From IMG/VR virus record IMGVR_UViG_2657245081_000004: a stretch of 12,885 bases of DNA; one strand, given 5' to 3'. The notes beneath the pieces are model-generated. The model saw nothing but the letters and a program-made list of their open reading frames with translations. It searched no databases and had not been told where the DNA came from. Positions 1-12,885 of this stretch are shown piece by piece. Every line of letters begins with the position of its first letter. The first letter of the stretch is position 1. The translations under genes were made by a program, and so were the position numbers. This DNA is from a virus (Duplodnaviria; Heunggongvirae; Uroviricota; Caudoviricetes).

Positions 1-1392
1 TCAAGAATAGCCGCAAAATGTTGTCATTACAACAAGGCGGCTATATGACGCTCGCGCAGNNNNNNNNNNTCCAGACTCATAGCGGGATAAAAGCTGACCG
101 TTCGGATCAACCGCCAGTGCATCCCTGTAATGCTCCCGAACCCTCTGAGCTTTTTCGCTGACACTCATCGCTGTGAATNNNNNNNNNNACATCCATTTTC
201 CGTATACCTGAAATACCATTTGCGCATCTGCATGGCCCATCTGGTTTGCTATAAATGCCGGGTTAGCACCAGCTGTCAGCGACCAGCAGGCATAAGTATG
301 TCTCGACTGATATGATTTTCGATGGCGGAGTCCGGCACGTTTTATCGCTGCGTCCCACATCTGCCTTATTGAGTCAACGGTAAAATGGTCACCATAATTT
401 TTTACTCTCGCTGACACTTCAGGTTGAAAAACAAAGGTGCATTTATGTTTTTCTGTTCTGCCATACTCTCTGAGGTGAACATCAATGATATGCTCTTTGC
501 TCAGTCTCGTTAATGTCATCTGACTCCGGAGAGCGTCGATTGCTGGCTTAATAAGATGAATGACCCGATTGGTTCCCGCCTGTGTTTTTGGTACCGTGAA
601 ACGGTCTTTTGCTAAATTTCTCCTGATCATCATTGTTCCATTTTTCAGATCTATGTCCTCCCATCCAAGTGCACACAGCTCACCAGGGCGAACGCCAGTA
701 TAAACAGAAACACACCATAAATTTTTGGCTTGCTGATTTCTGCACGCATCGATAAGACGGATGAATTCCTCCCGCGAAAGAGGATCCGGAATGGTTCTTG
801 ATTCCTTTAATGGCGAGATCCCCTTAAACGGGTTATCTGCCAGGTAACCGTTATCAACACCAAACTGGAACACGGCGTTAAGATTTGTCATGTAATTATT
901 TACAGTTACAGCCGATCTCCCTGGTTGTGTAACAATATAGTTACTTTTGGGGATCTGGTATCCAGTCAGTAGCTCTTTACGAACCTCCAGTAATTTTTCT
1001 TTATTAATCGATGAGGCAAGATTTTTTTCACCGATTATGCTCAGGATATTTTTGATGACGGCACGGTATGTGTTGAGTGATGTTTTTGCGACTTCAGTTT
1101 CTTTCAGTGCCAGAAATTTTTCAGCCAGTTCTTTTATGGTTAAATCTTGTCGGGTCTCACCAAATTTTTCCAGATTGCGTGAGGAGGGAAACTGTTTTGC
1201 ATAGTCGAAAACACCAGTTTTTATTGCGTAACAAACAGAGGCGCGTAGCTCACCTGCAACGCGCCTGTTTTTTGCTGTGTCAGGAACCCCCAGGTTTTCC
1301 CTGACTCTTACGCCTTTATAAACAAACCAGATACGTAATTTCCCTCCATGGTTTTCCACGCCTGTCGGATATTTCATTTCAATTTCTCTCAT
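1..1392 (-). CDS. int: Phage integrase, tyrosine recombinase family (463 codons; two 10-nt N runs inside the 3' end)
   Basis: Translation has integrase catalytic-domain motifs (RHTYACWSL...MGHADAQMVFQVYGKW with the putative nucleophile Tyr). Frame is kept across both N runs and the stop is at 1-3. Alternative start at 1377 (MKYPTG...) has a slightly better purine-rich upstream region. Confidence 0.85.
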   Translation of the reverse strand: MREIEMKYPTGVENHGGKLRIWFVYKGVRVRENLGVPDTAKNRRVAGELRASVCYAIKTGVFDYAKQFPSSRNLEKFGETRQDLTIKELAEKFLALKETEVAKTSLNTYRAVIKNILSIIGEKNLASSINKEKLLEVRKELLTGYQIPKSNYIVTQPGRSAVTVNNYMTNLNAVFQFGVDNGYLADNPFKGISPLKESRTIPDPLSREEFIRLIDACRNQQAKNLWCVSVYTGVRPGELCALGWEDIDLKNGTMMIRRNLAKDRFTVPKTQAGTNRVIHLIKPAIDALRSQMTLTRLSKEHIIDVHLREYGRTEKHKCTFVFQPEVSARVKNYGDHFTVDSIRQMWDAAIKRAGLRHRKSYQSRHTYACWSLTAGANPAFIANQMGHADAQMVFQVYGKWMXXXXFTAMSVSEKAQRVREHYRDALAVDPNGQLLSRYESGXXXXARASYSRLVVMTTFCGYS

Positions 1393-4676: not shown

Positions 4677-4845
4677 TATCGCGTCCTCAACAATGAATTT
4701 TGTGATGCAGTGCCTGGTGCCTCCAGGTGACGTTAACCAGTTAACAATTAACGCCGGATACAGAGAATCCACCCATAACACTGTTTTTGGTTTTAACTGT
4801 TCCGCGTGCGCTCAGCCGCATTCACCACATCACAAAATTCACTTT

Positions 4846-4903
4846 AAAAAGGGCGGCAGAGCAGTCACGGAGTAAAACTGATACCGCCAAACGTCACCAG
4901 AAA
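4846..4903 (-). ncRNA. dicF: DicF small RNA (ftsZ-targeting) with its intrinsic terminator
   Basis: Minus-strand sequence UUUCUGGUGACGUUUGGCGGUAUCAGUUUUACUCCGUGACUGCUCUGCCGCCCUUUUU matches remembered DicF; ends in a GGCGG/CCGCC stem plus U5. Confidence 0.85.
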
Positions 4904-5243
4904 ATTGATAACAGAGGGCGTTGCAGCGGGGTTGTCACTTAAGCGTATGGTCAACCTGACAACCCGGTGTCCTCAACGGGGAAGAAATAACCCCGCCATA
5001 CTTACCGCCGCACCATTTCGCGGGTTGCCACAACCGGAAGCGCACGGTCGACGAAAATTTAACGACAGGCTATCTATGAACCAGCTACCTCGCCGTGCGC
5101 TTTCGCGTTATGGTCTGACTTTTCAGGGAAATATCCTTTCAGTAAACTGTCAGTGCCGGATGCTCACCCGTGTCCGGCGCACGCACTCCACCTCACCCGT
5201 GGAGAACTCCTTAATTACCAACCTTAGCTTCGTTGGTTAGCTA

Positions 5244-6069: not shown

Positions 6070-6708
6070 TTAAATATCTTGTTGAATTTTAAAGCATACG
6101 CCCAATATGCAAGATAGATCATCCAGCATAATTGAAGGGTAGCGAGGATTCGTGGGGACTAAAAGAATATCCGGCCCTTCTATCTCCAGTTTACGAATGA
6201 CAGGTGTTGTGGTCCCTTTGGGTAAGGCAAGGACAATATTTCCTGGTTGTACGGTTCGATCGGGATCAACAAAAACTGTTGAACCATTTGGGATGGAAAC
6301 TCCCCCACCAGATGTTGACATACTGTCACTCTCTAGAACAACTGCAAAGGTATTGACCGGGATTTCTCCGACAAGCTGCACACAAGAGGTTATTGAGGAA
6401 TTTTTCATATAATCACTCCAGCTTGCTGCCTGCTGAAGTGATAGTAGCGGAACCGTTTTTATCGGCGGTAAAGATAGATCAAGCGAATCACCTGTATTTA
6501 ACTCTCCTCCATTAAGAAGCCAATTTTCGTTTACTTTCAATATTTTTGCCAGTGAACTTATGTAACGCGAGGACGGCGCTCCTCCACCGTTCATCCATTG
6601 ACTTACGGAGCCTTTTGATGCGCCAGTGCCATTGACAAGGTCTTTGCCTTTCAGGTTTAGCGCATGCATACGTTGGGTTATGCGTTCAGATATAGTTTGC
6701 TTGCTCAT
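6070..6708 (-). CDS. Prophage repressor, lambda CI / LexA-like (N-terminal HTH, C-terminal S24 peptidase domain)
   Basis: N-terminus ...RMHALNLKGKDLVNGTGASKGSVSQWMNGGG is HTH-like; C-terminal half has S24-type Ser (DSMS) and Lys (VIRKLE) context; divergent from the cro-like gene. Confidence 0.85.
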   Translation of the reverse strand: MSKQTISERITQRMHALNLKGKDLVNGTGASKGSVSQWMNGGGAPSSRYISSLAKILKVNENWLLNGGELNTGDSLDLSLPPIKTVPLLSLQQAASWSDYMKNSSITSCVQLVGEIPVNTFAVVLESDSMSTSGGGVSIPNGSTVFVDPDRTVQPGNIVLALPKGTTTPVIRKLEIEGPDILLVPTNPRYPSIMLDDLSCILGVCFKIQQDI

Positions 6709-6725: not shown

Positions 6726-6799
6726 CAGATGGTTTTGTTTCTTGACTTTCTTTGGTTTTGATTATTAAACTTTTGACGTTCAGTTTTATGGAGCGACTC

Positions 6800-7030
6800 A
6801 TGAAAAAATCAGAAGTATTAGGCTATTTTGGCGGAGTTGTTAAAACAGCCGCAGCTCTAGGAACGTCAAAAACCACAGTCAGCATGTGGGGGGAAGAGGT
6901 TCCGTGGAAATGGGCGTTGCTAATTCAGGCAGTCACTGCCGGGGCGCTCAAATATGAGTTACACATACCGACGGTTGTCATTCCCGGTTCTGATCATAAT
7001 CCGCCTTCTAACCAAGGGGGGGATTCATGA
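6800..7030 (+). CDS. Cro-like regulator (YdaS/DicC family)
   Basis: MKKSEVLGYFGGVVKTAAALGTSKTTVSMWG... resembles DicC/YdaS N-termini from memory; GGAG 5 nt upstream of ATG 6800; stop overlaps the next gene start (ATGA). Confidence 0.75.
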   Translation: MKKSEVLGYFGGVVKTAAALGTSKTTVSMWGEEVPWKWALLIQAVTAGALKYELHIPTVVIPGSDHNPPSNQGGDS

Positions 7031-7452
7031 AAATCAAGCATGAACACATCCGCATGGCGATGAATGCCTGGGCGCATCCGGACGGCGAAAAAGTACCGGC
7101 TGCGAAAATTACCAAAGCGTATTTCGAGCTGGGAATGACGTTCCCGGAACTGTATGACGACAGCCATCCGGAAGCCCTGGCTCGCAATACCCAGAAAATT
7201 TTCCGCTGGGTAGAGAAAGACACCCCTGATGCAGTTGAAAAAATTCAGGCGTTGTTACCAGCGATCGAAAAGGCAATGCCACCTTTGCTGGTGGCCAGAA
7301 TGCGCAGCCACAGTTCAGCTTATTTTCGGGAGCTGGTGGAGACGCGGGAGCGACTGGTGAGAGACGCTGATGATTTTGTCGCAGTGGCAATCGCCGGTTT
7401 CAATCAGATGAACCGTGGTGGCCCGGCAGGAAATGCTGTGGCAGTACATTGA
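7027..7452 (+). CDS. CII-like regulator, YdaT family
   Basis: 141-aa protein starting MKIKHEHI..., recalled as YdaT-like; coupled to the cro-like gene at the CII position. Confidence 0.65.
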   Translation: MKIKHEHIRMAMNAWAHPDGEKVPAAKITKAYFELGMTFPELYDDSHPEALARNTQKIFRWVEKDTPDAVEKIQALLPAIEKAMPPLLVARMRSHSSAYFRELVETRERLVRDADDFVAVAIAGFNQMNRGGPAGNAVAVH

Positions 7453-7523
7453 CTGACAATAGCCATATCGAATCGCTTCCGGCAACTCGTGAGTAAAAAG
7501 ATTCGGTATCAGAAGAGGTGAGT

Positions 7524-8594
7524 ATGGCTAACGCCTGGCTCAGATTATGGCATGACATGCCAAATGACCCTAAGTGGCGAACAATTGCCAGGGTGTCAGG
7601 GCAGCCAATTGCAACAGTGATGGCAGTGTATATCCACCTCCTGGTGAGCGCGTCACGAAATGTCACGCGAGGTCACATTGATGTCACGACAGAAGATTTG
7701 GCAAGTGCGCTCGACGTGACAGAAGAGGTAATTGATTCAATTTTGCAGACGATGCAGGGGCGGGTACTTGATGGTGATTTAATCACTGGATGGGAAAAAC
7801 GCCAGGTGCTGAAAGAGGACAACGGCAATATTTCGCAAACCGCAAAATCTCCGGCAGAGCGCAAGAGGGCGCAGCGAGAGAGGGAAAGAAAGCGGGAACA
7901 AAATGGCGATTGTCACGGCGCGTCACGAAATGTCACGCACATGTCACGACGAGTCACGACAGATAAAGATACAGATAAAGATACAGATCAAGAAGATCAA
8001 AACACTATGGTCCATGGCGTAAAAAACGCCACGAACCAGGCAGGGGATGTTCAGACCGTCAATCCTGGTCAGCCAGCAGGCACGACACCGGAAGCCGATT
8101 CAGCGTATGCGCTGAAAGCCGATTCGGGCGCTGTGCAGCAGGTGATGACCCCAAGGCCGGAGCAATCACACCAACTGCAGCAGCCTGAAGCCGATTCCGC
8201 CATTCAGCGGGAAGCCGATCGGGTAGTCCCGGAAAACACCGGGCTGTCTGTGGGACGAGTGGATTATCCGGATGTGTTCGAACAGGTCTGGCGGGAGTAC
8301 CCGTTGCGTGCCGGAGCAAACCCGAAGAAATCCGCTTTCAGTGCCTGGAAGGCCAGATTACGCGAGGGGGTGCCACCAGAGGCCATGCTGGATGGCGTGA
8401 GGCGTTACGCAAGATACTTGGCGGCTACCGGGAAAACGGGAACGGAATTTGTTCAGCGAGCGACGACGTTTTTTGGACCGGACCGGAATTTTGAGAACCC
8501 CTGGTTGCTCCCGGTAAGCGGCACGAACAACCAGCGTTGTGTGAATCATATTTCTGAACCGGATACCGAAATTCCACCGGGCTTCAGGGGGTAA
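7524..8594 (+). CDS. Phage replication initiation protein (O-like N-terminal region; C-terminal domain resembling DnaT)
   Basis: GAGG 5 nt upstream of ATG 7524; iteron arrays lie inside the gene as in lambda O; C-terminal region (VDYPDVFEQVWREYPL...FVQRATTFFGPDRNF) recalled as DnaT-like. Confidence 0.65.
   Translation: MANAWLRLWHDMPNDPKWRTIARVSGQPIATVMAVYIHLLVSASRNVTRGHIDVTTEDLASALDVTEEVIDSILQTMQGRVLDGDLITGWEKRQVLKEDNGNISQTAKSPAERKRAQRERERKREQNGDCHGASRNVTHMSRRVTTDKDTDKDTDQEDQNTMVHGVKNATNQAGDVQTVNPGQPAGTTPEADSAYALKADSGAVQQVMTPRPEQSHQLQQPEADSAIQREADRVVPENTGLSVGRVDYPDVFEQVWREYPLRAGANPKKSAFSAWKARLREGVPPEAMLDGVRRYARYLAATGKTGTEFVQRATTFFGPDRNFENPWLLPVSGTNNQRCVNHISEPDTEIPPGFRG
7648..7688. repeat. 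Iteron cluster 1: four GTCACG/GTCAC repeats at about 10-bp spacing
   Basis: GTCACG at 7652, 7662, 7683 and GTCAC at 7672; contains the 21-mer GCGCGTCACGAAATGTCACGC that recurs exactly at 7918-7938. Confidence 0.7.
7912..8003. repeat. Iteron cluster 2 (five GTCACG repeats at 10-11 bp spacing) followed by an AT-rich tandem repeat; putative origin of replication
   Basis: GTCACG at 7912, 7922, 7932, 7943, 7953; then AGATAAAGATACAGATAAAGATACAGATCAAGAAGATCAA. Iterons plus an AT-rich tract inside the initiator gene is the lambda ori layout. Confidence 0.65.
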
Positions 8595-8634
8595 GTGTTG
8601 ATTTCTGGTCATGAGGTAATTTTCAGGAGGGCTT

Positions 8635-9057
8635 GTGGCAAAAGTTTTTACACAAGAAGAGCGAGAAAAAATTAAAGGGCAGGTTGTTGAACTCGTACGC
8701 CAGAGTGGGCGTGAGACGTTACGGCAACTGGAAGTCAAGACAGGTGCGACAAGATATCTGATGAGCGTTCTCGCAAGAGAGCTGGTTGCCAGCGGCGATG
8801 TATACAACTCCGGCTACGGGTTATTCCCCTCTGAACAGGCGCGTAAGGACTGGCAAAACGCCCGCAAAAAACTCTCGAGGGCAAAGGTGAAGAAACCTGC
8901 TGTGGTTGATCCGGACCTTATCTGGTCATCACCTGACGGAGAAATACGTCGCTACGACAGTCGCCTAAACATAATCTGTCGCGAGTGCCGGAAGAGTGAA
9001 GCTATGCAGCGTGTACTGGCTTTCTATCAGGGTAATTTTCAGGAGGCGGTACTGTGA
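8635..9057 (+). CDS. Hypothetical protein (140 aa), GTG start
   Basis: AGGAGG 4 nt upstream of GTG 8635; unrecognised; flanked by a 16-bp direct repeat. Confidence 0.55.
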   Translation: MAKVFTQEEREKIKGQVVELVRQSGRETLRQLEVKTGATRYLMSVLARELVASGDVYNSGYGLFPSEQARKDWQNARKKLSRAKVKKPAVVDPDLIWSSPDGEIRRYDSRLNIICRECRKSEAMQRVLAFYQGNFQEAVL

Positions 9058-9114
9058 GTGAAATTAGCTATCAGGCTTCAATTACCGCTGGCATTCGCAT
9101 CAAAGGAGAGGAGC

Positions 9115-9471
9115 ATGGAAATAAAACCAGAGGATGAGTTAAGCAATATCGTTTTATTTCCGGTAAAAGAGGATGACCCTCGTAATCAGGTTAATTTTCT
9201 TTATGAGCCATCGGAAAGACCATATTGTCATCACGCCTCTGTCCGGGTTGACGAAAAAGAGCGTCAGGTCCGCTGTAAAATCTGCGGTGCAGTTGTGGAG
9301 CCATTTGACTGGATGCTCTCTGTGGCGAAAAGAGAAACCAGACTGGCAGATGATGTAAGGCTCTTGCGTCAGGAGGAGCGGGAAAGGCGAAAAAATATAG
9401 AAAAGCTAATTCAGATTGAGCGTAACGCGAAAGCGCGGATACGCAGGGCGACAAAATCCAGAACTGAATAA
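9115..9471 (+). CDS. Hypothetical protein (118 aa) with possible zinc-ribbon motif (CHH...CKICG) and basic C-terminal tail
   Basis: GGAGAGGAG upstream of ATG 9115; alternative GTG start at 9058 would add 19 aa. Confidence 0.55.
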   Translation: MEIKPEDELSNIVLFPVKEDDPRNQVNFLYEPSERPYCHHASVRVDEKERQVRCKICGAVVEPFDWMLSVAKRETRLADDVRLLRQEERERRKNIEKLIQIERNAKARIRRATKSRTE

Positions 9472-9564
9472 TTAAATTTAGCTCTGTTAAAAATTTAATC
9501 CTTAACCGGAGGGATTTCTGCACCCTCAGAACATCAGGAGGCCGCCCGAAAGGGCGGTAGTTAA

Positions 9565-9747
9565 ATGCGAAAGTTTAAAATAATTATTGAAACGGGAATA
9601 GCCGGTGGAGATTTCGAGGATGAATTCGAAGTGGATGATGATGCGACGCCTGATGAAATACATGACGAAGCAAAAGATATTTTCTTTAACTACTGCAATT
9701 ACTCATATCACGAAATAAAAGACGAAGAGGAAGAACAAAATGGCTGA
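9565..9747 (+). CDS. Small highly acidic protein (60 aa; about 20 Asp/Glu, 5 basic)
   Basis: Composition counted by hand; the Shine-Dalgarno AGGAG at 9536-9540 is separated from the ATG by a GAAA-tetraloop hairpin (9541-9558). Confidence 0.5.
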   Translation: MRKFKIIIETGIAGGDFEDEFEVDDDATPDEIHDEAKDIFFNYCNYSYHEIKDEEEEQNG

Positions 9748-9916
9748 TTTTGGTTCAACTAAATACAACGTCAGTTTTGAAGAATGGCATGAACTGTTAA
9801 TGGACTATGCAGAGTTACGTGGTGGCAGTGCTGCTGATGCTGAAGCATGGCGTGATGATTATGAAGCAGGAAAAACTCCGGTCGAAGCATATTGTGATGA
9901 GTGGGGCGATGAATGA
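9740..9916 (+). CDS. Small acidic protein (58 aa), translationally coupled to the preceding acidic ORF
   Basis: Hand translation MADFGSTKYNVSFEEWHELLMDYAELRGGSAADAEAWRDDYEAGKTPVEAYCDEWGDE; GAGGAAG 8 nt upstream; start overlaps the upstream stop by 8 nt. Not in the ORF track (below cutoff). Confidence 0.5.
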   Translation: MADFGSTKYNVSFEEWHELLMDYAELRGGSAADAEAWRDDYEAGKTPVEAYCDEWGDE

Positions 9917-9974
9917 GCGAGGTTAATTATCAGGAAGGGCATGAAACGGCGGGGCAAGCAAAAACAGTGGCATG

Positions 9975-10229
9975 GCGATATCGCTACGTGAAAAAAAAGG
10001 CGTTACGGACTTTCAGGGGAAGTAGTGGTCTGGTGACTGGAAATATGTACCGAAAAAAGAGGATTGTAACGACAGGCCGAACTATGAAATTCAGGCCTTA
10101 TTCACTGCCCCGCCAGTCCCGGTTACATCAGAAGAACTGGTTAAAGCTGTGCACTTTTATGAACAACTAAAACGCGAAAATCCACCAGCATCCGGAAACC
10201 TGATTACAGATTCCCAGATAAGGCAATGA
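9975..10229 (+). pseudogene. Interrupted ORF: 17 codons from ATG 9975, in-frame TAG at 10023-10025, then 67 sense codons with no start codon
   Basis: The frame reads MAISLREKKGVTDFQGK, TAG, then WSGDWKYVPKKEDCNDRPNYEIQALFTAPPVPVTSEELVKAVHFYEQLKRENPPASGNLITDSQIRQ. The track ORF 9913..10170 is in another frame and is basic and low-complexity. Confidence 0.35.
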
Positions 10230-10399
10230 GCTACCTGGCGCAGAACGGGCTGATAAGTATGGGGAATGTTTTACGATGAATATTTAGACTAAAGAGTTTG
10301 TAACGCTATGTAAGTGATTTTTTCTGGTTTAGATATTTATATGTCCGGCCAAATTGAGGTGTGTTTAAATGTAATTGCACATTGATTGTAGGAGGAATA

Positions 10400-10579
10400 A
10401 TGAAAAACGCATTGCAGTTTTTGTTTGTTGCGTTCTGGTTGTTCGTATCATGTATGCCCATCATCTTCACAGCAAGGTATATGGAAAAAGTTGATGTTTT
10501 GATATTAATATTTGGATATATAAATGCCCTTTTTTTAGGGGTGTTCATGGCGGTCATGTGCATTGAATACTGGCGGTAA
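10400..10579 (+). CDS. Small hydrophobic protein (59 aa) with two predicted transmembrane helices, in an AT-rich island
   Basis: MKNALQFLFVAFWLFVSCMPIIFTARYMEKVDVLILIFGYINALFLGVFMAVMCIEYWR; GGAGG 4 nt upstream of ATG 10400; surrounding DNA (about 10260-10620) is visibly AT-rich. Confidence 0.55.
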   Translation: MKNALQFLFVAFWLFVSCMPIIFTARYMEKVDVLILIFGYINALFLGVFMAVMCIEYWR

Positions 10580-10662: not shown

Positions 10663-10734
10663 GACTGCGGGTGCTTGAGGCTATCTGTCTCAGGCATGAA
10701 CACCAAAAGGCAGATAGAGAAAAGCCCCAGTTAA

Positions 10735-10800
10735 CATTACGCGTCCTGCAAGACGCTTAACATTAATCTGAGGCCATATCTATGCGACACATAGAGATTA
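10735..10800 (-). ncRNA. Putative Sok-like antisense RNA region (approximate bounds)
   Basis: Minus-strand promoter-like TTGACC (complement of 10821-10826), 16-nt spacer, GCTAAT, reading across the mok-like start; position matches hok/sok architecture. Ends not determinable. Confidence 0.35.
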
Positions 10801-10841
10801 GCCTCTTACGGACCGAAAGGTCAAGGAGAAGCAGGCTATGA
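10782..10841 (+). CDS. Short leader ORF (19 aa) ending in ATGA overlap with the hok start; mok-like coupling frame
   Basis: ATG 10782 with GAGG 8 nt upstream; stop TGA overlaps the hok ATG. Confidence 0.35.
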   Translation: MRHIEISLLRTERSRRSRL

Positions 10842-10993
10842 AGCAGCAAAAGGCGATGTTAATCGCCCTGATCGTCATCTGTTTAACCGTCATAGTGACG
10901 GCACTGGTAACGAGGAAAGACCTCTGCGAGGTACGAATCCGAACCGGCCAGACGGAGGTCGCTGTCTTCACAGCTTACGAACCTGAGGAGTAA
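10838..10993 (+). CDS. hokD: Hok-family type I toxin (51 aa), HokD/RelF-like
   Basis: Hand translation MKQQKAMLIALIVICLTVIVTALVTRKDLCEVRIRTGQTEVAVFTAYEPEE matches remembered HokD; not in the ORF track (below cutoff). Confidence 0.85.
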   Translation: MKQQKAMLIALIVICLTVIVTALVTRKDLCEVRIRTGQTEVAVFTAYEPEE

Positions 10994-12490: not shown

Positions 12491-12507
12491 TTTTGTGGAG
12501 TAAGTTG

Positions 12508-12885
12508 ATGCGTGATATTCAGATGGTTCTTGAGCGTTGGGGAGCGTGGGCGGCTAATAATCATGAAGATGTGACCTGGTCGTCCATTGCTGCCGGTTTT
12601 AAGGGGTTAATTTCTTCAAAAGTCAAATCTCGCCCGCAATGCTGTGACGATGACGCGATGATCATTTGTGGATGTATGGCTCGCCTGAAAAAAAACAACA
12701 GCGATTTGCATGATTTATTGGTGGACTATTATGTCGGCGGCATGACTTTTATGGCGCTTGCACGTAAGCATGGGCGATCTGATTGTTGGGTTGGCAGGAT
12801 GCTCCAGAAAGCTGAGGGCGTAGTGGAGGGCATGCTGATGGTGTTGGATCTCCGATTGGAGATGGATGCTGATTGTTCGAAATAA
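12508..12885 (+). CDS. Late-gene antitermination protein Q (Q933W/Q21-like)
   Basis: [35 protein letters not shown]... recalled as Q of 933W-type phages; GGAG 7 nt upstream of ATG 12508; stop is the last codon of the window. Confidence 0.8.

Follow-up and report, generated by a model that had tools for sequence, protein, structure and literature searches.

Two probably independent genes downstream of the replication gene of a lambdoid prophage: a long-form homologue of lambda Ren and a predicted zinc-ribbon/coiled-coil protein

INTRODUCTION

Ren of bacteriophage lambda is a non-essential protein (PMC10695390). On Rex+ lysogens the growth of ren mutants is poor, and suppressors of the defect lie in O and P; in two-hybrid assays Ren interacts with both RexA and RexB, and its gene travels with initiator/helicase-loader replication modules (bioRxiv 10.1101/2021.04.19.439022 supplement; PMC3224144). 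The DUF977 family has been termed winged helix (PMC2686095), and Salmonella genome reports apply the name LygF to a gene in the Sdr I region, with no function given. The Ea22 proteins are described as modular: their C-terminal domains may be swapped or split, their central part is a coiled coil, and a pro-lysogenic action has been reported for them (PMC8614690).

Here we compare with these systems two adjacent genes, gene 1 and gene 2, carried on a stretch of phage DNA of 12,885 nucleotides (the window, by which we mean the whole stretch that was analysed). A prophage of E. coli CFT073 matches this stretch at 100% identity. The prophage is lambdoid, of the Rac/Qin type, and the two genes belong to its rightward (P_R) operon, where they come after the replication gene and before antiterminator Q. 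We consider it likely that gene 1, a long-form Ren homologue, and gene 2, a zinc-ribbon/coiled-coil protein of PHROG 1621, are unrelated, independently mobile delayed-early genes. The families and fold classes of the two, their conservation, their places in the genome and their mutual independence are solid, and what we say of their biochemical activities and phenotypes is in every case what we infer.

RESULTS

Organization of the Locus and the Start of Gene 2

The arrangement of the region, on which the following sections draw, is given below by window position.

7518 to 8594, plus strand: replication-initiator gene, 358 aa, directly upstream of gene 1 (phrog_3729 'replication initiation protein', E 1.8e-256)
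8615 to 8630, plus strand: 16-nt direct repeat GGTAATTTTCAGGAGG, copy 1, exact, carrying the SD of gene 1 (sequence search, shuffles)
8635 to 9057, plus strand: gene 1, 140 aa, GTG start, TGA stop, the DUF977 / LygF / long-form Ren homologue (PF06163, phrog_142, hhalign)
9031 to 9046, plus strand: copy 2 of the same repeat, within the 3' end of gene 1 at codons G-N-F-Q-E-A (sequence search, shuffles)
9087 to 9114, plus strand: left boundary of the mobile module that carries gene 2, including the SD AAGGAG at 9103-9108 (megablast boundary)
9115 to 9471, plus strand: gene 2, 118 aa, ATG start, TAA stop, the PHROG 1621 zinc-ribbon/coiled-coil protein (phrog_1621)

The first-pass annotation of this DNA had placed two genes with strong ribosome-binding sites at 8635-9471, and both the coordinates and the SDs are confirmed, with AGGAGG (8625-8630) lying 4 nt ahead of the GTG of gene 1 and AAGGAG 6 nt ahead of the ATG of gene 2. 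The plausibility that it had attached to the protein sequences is likewise borne out by purifying selection and by homologues that number in the hundreds to thousands. For gene 1, dN/dS is 0.2-0.3, and 9 of the 11 nucleotide differences that separate gene 2 from the copy in ArgO145 fall at third codon positions. Judged by these sequence comparisons, gene 1 and gene 2 are true conserved genes under purifying selection, and chance open reading frames are excluded.

Gene 1 starts 40 nt past the initiator gene, whose product has a weakly DnaT-like C-terminal tail and which is followed by no P, DnaC or DnaB gene. A scan of the plus strand across 7400-10400 found neither a sigma-70-like promoter nor an intrinsic terminator, and no Rfam RNA family was found in 8400-9700. 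The 16-nt repeat has two matches in the window versus none in 200 shuffles, and both copies are kept at equivalent places in related loci.

When taken mechanically, the open reading frame of gene 2 extends back to a GTG at 9058, which would give a protein of 137 aa. We rejected this longer form and placed the start at ATG 9115 because the N terminus of the family is conserved from that point, because RefSeq calls the same start in CFT073, because DNA homology to Stx phages begins only at about window position 9087, and because the SD spacing fits. In the megablast search the homology to Stx2a phages and to ArgO145 opens at query 492-493, equivalent to window 9086-9087, and ArgO145 has the same leader ahead of gene 2.

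Homology of Gene 1 to Lambda Ren

Both genes had earlier been said to match nothing that could be named. This does not hold for gene 1, which belongs to DUF977, LygF and PHROG 142, nor strictly for gene 2, which falls in PHROG 1621. Gene 1 scores 98.5 bits against the Pfam DUF977 model (PF06163; E 4.2e-28, gathering cutoff 22.1 bits), with residues 1-136 aligned to model positions 1-134 of 134, and matches phrog_142, 'Ren-like exclusion protein', at E 2.3e-47. It is identical to the RefSeq entry WP_001151225, 'DUF977 family protein', and shares 86-96% identity with proteins annotated as LygF in E. coli phages, among them vB_EcoS-640R1 and Rac-SA53, with relatives in phage records going by the name of 'LygF' or 'Ren-like'.

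Comparison of a DUF977 set with a lambda Ren set by hhalign gave a probability of 97.1% (E 6.3e-11, 91 columns), in an alignment that spans both the N-terminal domain and a C-terminal motif. In BLASTP, gene 1 is 60% identical to lambda Ren over Ren residues 73-92 (E 4e-7), and the motif is conserved in both the DUF977 and the Ren subfamilies.

8968 to 9027, plus strand: Ren C-terminal motif N-I-I-C-x-E-C-R-x-S-E-x-M-x-R-V-L-A-F-Y, gene 1 residues 112-131 (BLASTP)

The Pfam DUF977 model gives no match when run on lambda Ren itself, so that the link to Ren relies on the profile-profile comparison together with PHROG clustering. On this evidence gene 1 is a demonstrable homologue of lambda Ren, in a long form. 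Homology to well-characterized Nin-region or replication proteins had been held to speak against the earlier reading of this locus; the match of gene 1 to Ren counts in part against that reading, Ren being a named protein but not a well-characterized one. A PDB sequence search with gene 1 returned chance-level matches only, there is no NCBIfam family for gene 1 or gene 2, and we found no functional study in the literature of LygF, DUF977, WP_001151225, WP_000403785 (the RefSeq entry identical to gene 2, 'hypothetical protein') or the PHROGs.

Family and Predicted Fold of Gene 2

Gene 2 matches phrog_1621 at E 1.8e-56, with residues 1-117 aligned to model positions 1-120 of 134, and belongs to a wider family of 1,579 representative clusters (50% identity) at E<=1e-3. 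All 64 of a set of diverse relatives match PHROG 1621 and PHROG 8538, and 63 of them match PHROG 4865. We found no Pfam or NCBIfam model, solved relative or literature for this family. A PDB search with the gene 2 profile gave chance-level matches only, Foldseek against the BFVD viral structures reached a best E of 0.17 with generic zinc ribbons, and tblastn of the distant superfamily members P0419 and P0403 against cultured phages led again only to enterobacterial 'hypothetical proteins'. The 'RusA family' names attached to one Serratia cluster come from true RusA sequences, unrelated to gene 2, that were lumped in by clustering. The sensitive homology and structure searches that the first-pass annotation had suggested linked gene 1 to Ren and to a winged helix-turn-helix (wHTH) fold, and were structurally uninformative for gene 2.

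The core common to the gene 2 clusters is C-x-H...C-x2-C-G...DPFD plus ERNAKARIR, and an N-terminal motif, E-L-S-N-V-V-x-F-P, is highly conserved. Two regions of the protein are mapped below.

9220 to 9300, plus strand: zinc ribbon C38-x-H40...C54-x2-C57, gene 2 residues 36-62 (ligand conservation, AlphaFold2)
9301 to 9465, plus strand: long heptad-repeat helix, gene 2 residues 63-117, with basic patch E102-R-N-A-K-A-R-I-R110 (AlphaFold2)

C38, C54 and C57 do not vary among the 64 relatives, and 61 of these have H40, with cysteine in its place in the other three; within the Enterobacterales family of gene 2 all four residues are invariant. The cluster had been described as CHH...CxxC, and the residues C38-H39-H40...C54-x2-C57 are present as stated, but conservation extends to C38, H40, C54 and C57 and not to H39, which varies among the 64 relatives. 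In the AlphaFold2 model strands form at 43-46 and 51-54 (beta-hairpins at 43-54), and on this model gene 2 has a generic zinc-ribbon fold with a predicted metal site.

The remainder of the AlphaFold2 monomer model is a single 55-residue helix, 63-117, with pLDDT of 78-92. Residues 63-118 have a pI of 11.1, include 17 K/R and follow a heptad pattern, in keeping with the basic, coiled-coil-like C terminus that had been noticed before. The a/d positions (77, 81, 84, 88, 91, 95, 98, 102, 105, 109, 112 and 116) are mostly hydrophobic over the 64 sequences, with conserved polar exceptions such as E102, and the conserved positions that are exposed on the helix are R103, N104, K106, R108 and R110. The protein would thus run from an acidic disordered N terminus with a short conserved motif, through a CHCC zinc ribbon, to a helix of ~55 residues with a continuous heptad repeat, the last most likely forming a coiled-coil dimer or oligomer that shows an Arg/Lys/Asn patch. 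From this layout we infer coiled-coil oligomerization, zinc binding and nucleic-acid binding, and gene 2 may be a small oligomeric adaptor for nucleic acid or for an acidic host or phage protein.

Candidate Roles of Gene 2

Some relatives join gene 2 to another phage protein. In P0362, P0002 and P0004 a complete Ead_Ea22 domain is followed by a complete gene 2, and such fusions are rare compared with stand-alone copies; some of them could be assembly or frameshift artefacts. We found no description in the literature of the gene 2 zinc-ribbon module as an Ea22 domain. In the window itself, the resemblance of orf85 (9913-10170) to an Ead/Ea22 remnant is limited to its first 16 residues (E 0.012). 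Gene 2 is this module standing alone, whereas at times the module is joined to the C terminus of Ead/Ea22-like proteins, and it may therefore act with them in the little-understood pathway that modulates phage development.

An extension of this idea is that the gene 2 superfamily constitutes undescribed phage oligomeric nucleic-acid-binding regulators of a 'reverse bZIP' kind (ribbon, zipper, C-terminal basic patch), maybe working with Ead/Ea22. We regard this as a speculative reading and on balance an unlikely one. The order of parts is the reverse of that in bZIP proteins, where the basic region, N-x2-A-A-x2-[CS]-R, lies N-terminal to the zipper; gene 2 has E-R-N-A-K-A-R-I-R-R at the C-terminal end of its heptad region, and neither gene 2 nor any of its 64 relatives has a Pfam bZIP match. 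If the reading were true, gene 2 might bias the lysis-lysogeny decision or control replication, as a partner or detachable domain of Ead/Ea22.

It is somewhat more doubtful that gene 2 serves in host takeover or anti-defence, its helix face and N-terminal motif binding a host protein and inhibiting it. Such a role would be in keeping with an early gene that is small and non-structural, moves between early regions with its own SD, is very widespread among phages, and keeps both a surface patch and the motif E-L-S-N-V-V-x-F-P strongly conserved; however, no known anti-defence or defence model was matched, no target conserved over so broad a family is evident, and the basic coiled-coil patch suits nucleic acid equally well or better.

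An improbable third possibility is a transcription factor acting on RNA polymerase or antitermination, in which the ribbon would dock on RNA polymerase in the manner of TFIIB and the coil would enter the enzyme or bind nut/qut. The arginine-rich helix is compatible with this, as is the fact that in Serratia, Yersinia, Klebsiella and Erwinia prophages the homologue precedes Q by one small ORF (with NinG/RusA/NinH on its other side in the first three), but the nin region collects accessory genes in general and the E. coli copies occupy other early regions, distant from Q. The Zn_Ribbon_TF model (TFIIB zinc-binding, PF08271) gives a weak match at 21.6 bits, below its gathering cutoff of 29, and only 7 of the 64 relatives have any match to it, the best a weak one (E 1.3e-5); the likeness to DksA/TraR, Ogr/Delta and TFIIB structures goes no further than a generic ribbon.

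Predicted Fold and Proposed Role of Gene 1

The N-terminal region of gene 1 is modelled with confidence.

8653 to 8880, plus strand: winged helix-turn-helix domain, gene 1 residues 7-82 (AlphaFold2, Foldseek)

AlphaFold2 gives pLDDT of ~87-95 across residues 11-80 and low confidence in the C-terminal half, and places helices at 7-24, 29-36 and 40-53 and wing strands near 57-64. On this model gene 1 has the three-helix bundle and beta-hairpin wing of a wHTH fold. The top Foldseek matches in the PDB are all wHTH regulators (GntR, MarR, IclR, AspA), and almost all of the top 50 are wHTH, with probabilities of 0.9-1.0, yet E-values of 9e-3 or weaker.

Given these structures, gene 1 could be read as a plain winged-helix protein that regulates the early genes around it and takes no Ren-like part in replication or exclusion. 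The fold is confident, the closest structures are the MarR, GntR and IclR repressors, and NCBI labels truncated Ren proteins 'MarR family transcriptional regulator'. We nevertheless think this a poor prospect, as gene 1 has the Ren-specific C-terminal motif, its surroundings contain no promoter-like site that it might control, and the genetics of lambda Ren implicate O and P and not transcription (bioRxiv 10.1101/2021.04.19.439022 supplement). Genes of this family, moreover, always directly follow the replication genes, irrespective of module type and regardless of the genes downstream, a placement that recurs for the DUF977 gene in Rac-SA53, phage 75/02 Stx and a Salmonella prophage.

As a Ren homologue, gene 1 would by analogy with lambda be an accessory that the replication module can do without, and one which likely helps phage replication in cells with Rex-type exclusion functions and probably works by binding DNA and/or the initiator. 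No rexA or rexB is annotated beside the repressor in the matching CFT073 prophage, and a Ren-like role would therefore be directed at other prophages or concern replication alone.

Gene 1 and Gene 2 Are Distributed Independently

The two genes had also been taken for a gene pair and a possible accessory system, or for regulators. The winged helix of gene 1 and the basic helix of gene 2 leave some plausibility to the idea that they may be regulators; the pair is another matter. Gene 1 and gene 2 are adjacent and co-oriented with no terminator in between, rare chimeric ORFs (P0040 and P0041) contain pieces of both, and among 5,426 complete E. coli genomes the adjacent pair recurs in 1,096. Over the same genomes, however, gene 1 is found in 3,924 and gene 2 in 1,678, such that the adjacent pair is missing from ~72% of the genomes with gene 1 and ~35% of those with gene 2. 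The ea22 region, remote from the replication module, is where gene 2 is found in ArgO145 and in Stx phages of the 933W type. Of 78 close copies, 26 have DUF4406 and Ead/Ea22 genes intervening between gene 2 and DUF977, and in other genera no DUF977 was detected within 3 kb of the Q-adjacent gene 2 in any of 15 loci. PADLOC gave no match for gene 1 and only a spurious one for gene 2 (E 0.033). P0040 consists of gene 2 residues 1-86 followed by DUF977 from about residue 24, an order that reverses the genomic one, and it therefore seems a rearrangement artefact. A two-component accessory system, be it toxin-antitoxin, defence/anti-defence, or regulator plus effector, is thus largely refuted by distribution already, and we hold it to be very improbable; the apparent 'pair' results incidentally from the mosaic shuffling of the hypervariable replication-to-Q region.

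DISCUSSION

Both families are already catalogued, and in this respect the finding is ordinary. The window itself has little significance, with both proteins identical to RefSeq entries and present in thousands of E. coli genomes. Its interest lies in the families. DUF977/'LygF', present in ~72% of complete E. coli genomes, is readable as a long-form Ren, which ties a common DUF to a classical unsolved lambda gene concerned with replication and Rex exclusion, and as 'long Ren' it could give a tractable entry to the 45-year-old question of Ren function. The gene 2 family is large and sharply conserved, in its four metal ligands and its ERNAKARIR-like patch, and has no Pfam model; its Ead/Ea22 fusions are a concrete experimental lead. 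The case of the two genes also cautions against taking prophage adjacency for a system.

Among described families, gene 2 is closest to PHROG 1621 (related to 8538 and 4865; function unknown), of which it is a full-length member showing no difference. With the Ead/Ea22-like proteins (PF13935) of lambdoid and Stx phages the relation is one of neighbourhood: homologues of gene 2 often lie directly downstream of them, overlapping, whereas gene 2 itself has no Ead_Ea22 domain and in this window no Ead/Ea22 gene lies ahead of it. The bZIP proteins and the small coiled-coil/zinc-finger regulators of the DksA/TraR type resemble gene 2 by analogy only.

Gene 1 is a full-length member of DUF977/'LygF', known from Rac-type prophages and the Salmonella Enteritidis Sdr I region, with no substantive difference. 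From lambda Ren (NP_040633) it differs in length (140 aa versus 96 aa): behind the wing it carries an extra basic insert of ~20-30 residues, its N-terminal helix is longer, and a second cysteine gives it C115-x2-C118. The settings differ as well, since lambda ren overlaps P terminally and gene 1 is set off from the replication gene by 40 nt (8595-8634) with its own SD, the replication module has a single 358-aa initiator where lambda has O plus P, and the prophage, in the CFT073 annotation, is without the rexAB of the lambda setting. Despite these differences, gene 1 and lambda Ren share an N-terminal winged-helix region by profile-profile comparison, the C-terminal motif N-x-I-x-x-E-C-R-x-S-x-x-M-x-R-V-L-A-x-Y and membership of PHROG 142, and each stands first after the replication genes in its P_R operon.

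Gene content of the window

The ORF map and family scans show that the window comes from an E. coli lambdoid prophage of the Rac/Qin type and spans its early region, organized as follows.

Features of the window, from the ORF map and family scans or with the supporting match in parentheses
1-1392, minus strand: integrase
Listed with the integrase: excisionase-like gene
Exonuclease-domain protein of 835 aa
4851-4902, minus strand: DicF antisense RNA (Rfam, 76.7 bits, above the gathering score)
6070-6708, minus strand: cI-type repressor
6752-7030: P22-Cro-like gene
7027-7452: CII/YdaT-like gene
7518-8594: single replication-initiator gene, 358 aa (phrog_3729, E 2e-256)
Directly after the initiator: gene 1 and gene 2
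Between gene 2 and Q: small genes and a DUF968 gene
10669-10840, plus strand: sok antitoxin RNA region of a hok/sok locus (Rfam, 106.7 bits, above the gathering score)
10838-10993: Hok-type toxin ORF adjoining the sok region
12493-12885: late-gene antiterminator Q, the last ORF of the window (PF06530, E 1e-50)

The 926 bases around gene 1 and gene 2 are 100% identical to the E. coli CFT073 prophage beside potC and to many other strains. Past ∼9.9 kb the alignment to CFT073 is lost with an offset shift of ∼291 nt, and the prophage of the window is therefore related, not identical, to that of CFT073. In the integrase region (1-320, minus strand) the translations contain runs of X, and hence the window has short stretches of masked or ambiguous bases.

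Both ORFs lie where the first-pass annotation had placed them. Gene 1 (140 aa) spans 8635-9057 and starts with GTG, preceded at a distance of 4 nt by AGGAGG; gene 2 (118 aa) spans 9115-9471 and starts with ATG, preceded at 6 nt by AAGGAG. A longer gene 2 from GTG 9058, the mechanical limit of the ORF, was ruled out because the conserved N terminus of the family, the RefSeq call and the DNA homology to Stx phages, which begins only at ∼9087, all place the start at 9115. Purifying selection on both genes is clear, with a dN/dS of 0.2-0.3 for gene 1 against relatives at 65-69% identity, and with 9 of the 11 differences between gene 2 and its copy in Stx phage ArgO145 falling in third positions.

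The genes had been described as matching nothing nameable, which does not hold: gene 1 can be named (DUF977, PHROG 142) and is kin to a gene of the replication/nin boundary, and gene 2 is catalogued. Both are identical to RefSeq proteins (WP_001151225, "DUF977 family protein," and WP_000403785, "hypothetical protein"). What remains of value is the link between DUF977 and Ren, together with the large, sharply conserved phage family of gene 2, which is without a Pfam model and has an architecture open to testing.

Family and architecture of gene 2

Gene 2 belongs to PHROG 1621 (E 2e-56), with weaker matches to PHROGs 8538 and 4865; the three are labeled "unknown function." No Pfam or NCBIfam family is reached at threshold: with 21.6 bits, the TFIIB zinc-ribbon model falls short of its cutoff of 29. 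Close homologues, at 45-97% identity, occur in Enterobacterales only, each annotated "hypothetical"; when 1.84 billion cluster representatives were searched with a profile, 1,579 clusters matched at E≤1e-3, 238 of them at E≤1e-10. All members tested hit the same three PHROGs and zero Pfam families. Common to the clusters are the core C-x-H-x13-C-x2-C-G-x3-[DE]-P-F-D and, after it, a helix that terminates in L-[KE]-R-x-E-R-N-A-K-A-R-[IL]-R. The 90%-identity cluster of a Serratia relative, P0370, mixes in true RusA proteins ("RusA family crossover junction endodeoxyribonuclease") of unrelated sequence, a clustering artefact able to spread a wrong name.

The cluster reported as CHH...CxxC corresponds to C38-H39-H40...C54-x2-C57. 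Every one of 64 diverse relatives has C38, C54 and C57, and nearly every one has H40; H39 varies. The description of gene 2 as a zinc-ribbon protein of unknown function with a basic coiled coil is borne out. In an AlphaFold2 model (mean pLDDT 72) an acidic, disordered N terminus precedes short ribbon hairpins and a single unbroken helix from 63 to 117; the C-terminal 56 residues have a pI of 11.1. Column statistics place heptad a/d positions continuously along this helix (77, 81, 84, 88, 91, 95, 98, 102, 105, 109, 112 and 116), with the conserved Arg-103, Asn-104, Lys-106, Arg-108 and Arg-110 facing outward. Such a pattern is characteristic of coiled-coil oligomers, and the oligomer would display a basic patch; oligomerization, zinc binding and the ligand of gene 2 are all inferred.

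Gene 1 and gene 2 in a mosaic region

The two genes had been proposed to form a pair, possibly an accessory system, but their distributions are independent and their placement separable. Of 5,426 complete E. coli genomes, 3,924 contain gene 1, 1,678 contain gene 2 and 1,096 have the two side by side. Sufficient flank was available for 78 close copies of gene 2, of which 45 directly follow DUF977, 26 are separated from it by a DUF4406 gene and an Ead/Ea22-like gene, and 7 have no DUF977 within the surrounding 3 kb. ArgO145 carries gene 2 apart from its replication module, in the ea22 region, where it overlaps the end of an Ead/Ea22 gene and keeps its own 28-nt leader and Shine-Dalgarno sequence (SD); in 933W a paralogue (27% identity) follows another Ead/Ea22 gene. 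Prophages of Serratia, Yersinia, Klebsiella and Erwinia hold a homologue in a fixed slot, downstream of NinG, RusA or NinH and one small ORF upstream of Q, and in unrelated phages the more remote members are found among small early genes. A defense system found no support from PADLOC. On the genome counts, the variable neighbors, the other slots and the PADLOC result, the adjacency is a mosaic by-product, one of several arrangements in the hypervariable DNA that separates the replication genes from Q. Two chimeric E. coli ORFs of 201 aa (P0040 and P0041) join gene 2 residues 1-86 to DUF977 from residue ∼24 onward, the reverse of the genomic order, and are probably products of rearrangement or assembly, not a meaningful fusion.

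Gene 1 is flanked by an exact 16-nt direct repeat, GGTAATTTTCAGGAGG, at 8615-8630, where it contains the gene 1 SD, and at 9031-9046, within the last codons of gene 1 (two matches in the window versus none in 200 shuffles). Both copies are kept in the same places in most related loci, and where the order is DUF977, DUF4406, Ead/Ea22, gene 2 the repeat lies at the DUF977 3′ end. It may mark mosaic junctions or be linker sequence.

Ead/Ea22 and the traveling neighbors of gene 2

Some proteins, such as P0362 (256 aa, junction ...AELEAR|EIKPEDEL...), P0002 and P0004, consist of a complete Ead_Ea22 domain (PF13935) fused in frame to a complete gene 2. Ea22 proteins are described as pro-lysogenic and modular, having a coiled coil at the center and C-terminal domains that can be exchanged or split (PMC8614690). 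Gene 2 can thus be viewed as a module in its stand-alone form, one that at times serves as an Ead/Ea22 C-terminal domain. These fusions are rare compared with thousands of stand-alone copies, and Ead/Ea22, the sole functional association found for gene 2, is a weak one.

Two small genes lie 3′ of gene 2 (9565-9916; 4682-5033 in the compared locus L002), a 60-aa DUF7167 gene and a 58-aa phrog_519 match. Because they accompany gene 2 in 63 of 104 close loci, and also in the ArgO145 ea22 region, the natural mobile unit seems to be gene 2 with these genes, not gene 1 with gene 2. Ahead of the DUF7167 gene are an SD (AGGAGG, 9536-9541), a stable hairpin (GCCGCCC-GAAA-GGGCGGU, 9541-9558), AGUUAA and the ATG at 9565. 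The fold in 9536-9567 has −16.7 kcal/mol (z −3.4). Without the hairpin, 23 nt would separate the SD from its start codon, so the site is a possible structure-bridged ribosome-binding site. The following 85-aa ORF (9913-10170) begins MSEVNYQ..., resembling the Ead/Ea22 N terminus MSEIDYQALRE, and diverges beyond 16 residues (E 0.012); its CFT073 counterpart is annotated as a frameshifted pseudogene, and it may be an Ead/Ea22 remnant.

Relationship of gene 1 to lambda Ren

Gene 1 covers the whole Pfam DUF977 model (98.5 bits, cutoff 22.1) and matches PHROG 142, "Ren-like exclusion protein" (E 2e-47). Phage records name it "LygF," which in Salmonella genome reports labels a gene of the Sdr I region without a stated function. 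Direct BLASTP against lambda Ren aligns only a C-terminal motif (60% identity, E 4e-7), N-I-I-C-R-E-C-R-K-S-E-A-M-Q-R-V-L-A-F-Y in gene 1 and N-L-V-F-K-E-C-R-Q-S-A-A-M-K-R-V-L-A-V-Y in Ren. Profile-profile comparison of the DUF977 and Ren alignments extends over 91 columns, including the N-terminal domain (97.1% probability, E 6e-11), and between the two conserved parts gene 1 has ∼20-30 residues more than Ren. On these alignments we regard the link as solid, and as remote because the DUF977 model itself does not detect lambda Ren.

AlphaFold2 predicts a winged helix at residues 11-80 (pLDDT ∼87-95) and a C-terminal half of low certainty. The best Foldseek matches in the PDB (probability 0.97-1.0, but with weak E-values) belong without exception to winged-helix regulators or centromere binders (GntR, MarR, IclR and AspA), which fits how DUF977 had earlier been assigned by HHpred/COMPASS (PMC2686095), and truncated Ren proteins carry the NCBI name "MarR family."

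In every locus examined the DUF977 gene lies downstream of the replication genes irrespective of their type, be it YdaU/YdaV, a DnaC-like loader with DUF1627 or, in the window, a single initiator; lambda has ren in the same place, after O and P. The 358-aa initiator of the window carries an acidic linker of TDKD repeats, its C-terminal tail is weakly DnaT-like, and no lambda-P, DnaC or DnaB-type gene lies between it and gene 1. Ren is dispensable (PMC10695390). The supplement of Thomason et al. (bioRxiv 10.1101/2021.04.19.439022) describes poor growth of ren mutants on Rex+ lysogens, for which suppressors lie in O and P, the occurrence of ren alongside initiator/helicase-loader modules, and two-hybrid interactions of Ren with RexA and RexB, the RexB interaction being reported also in PMC3224144. 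Compared with lambda, gene 1 has a 40-nt gap upstream in place of a terminal overlap, rex genes are not among the annotated genes of the matching CFT073 prophage, and the replication module is of a different kind, all of which points against a simple equivalence with Ren. Given the homology, the placement and the Ren literature, gene 1 would by inference be a Ren-type accessory protein of the replication module.
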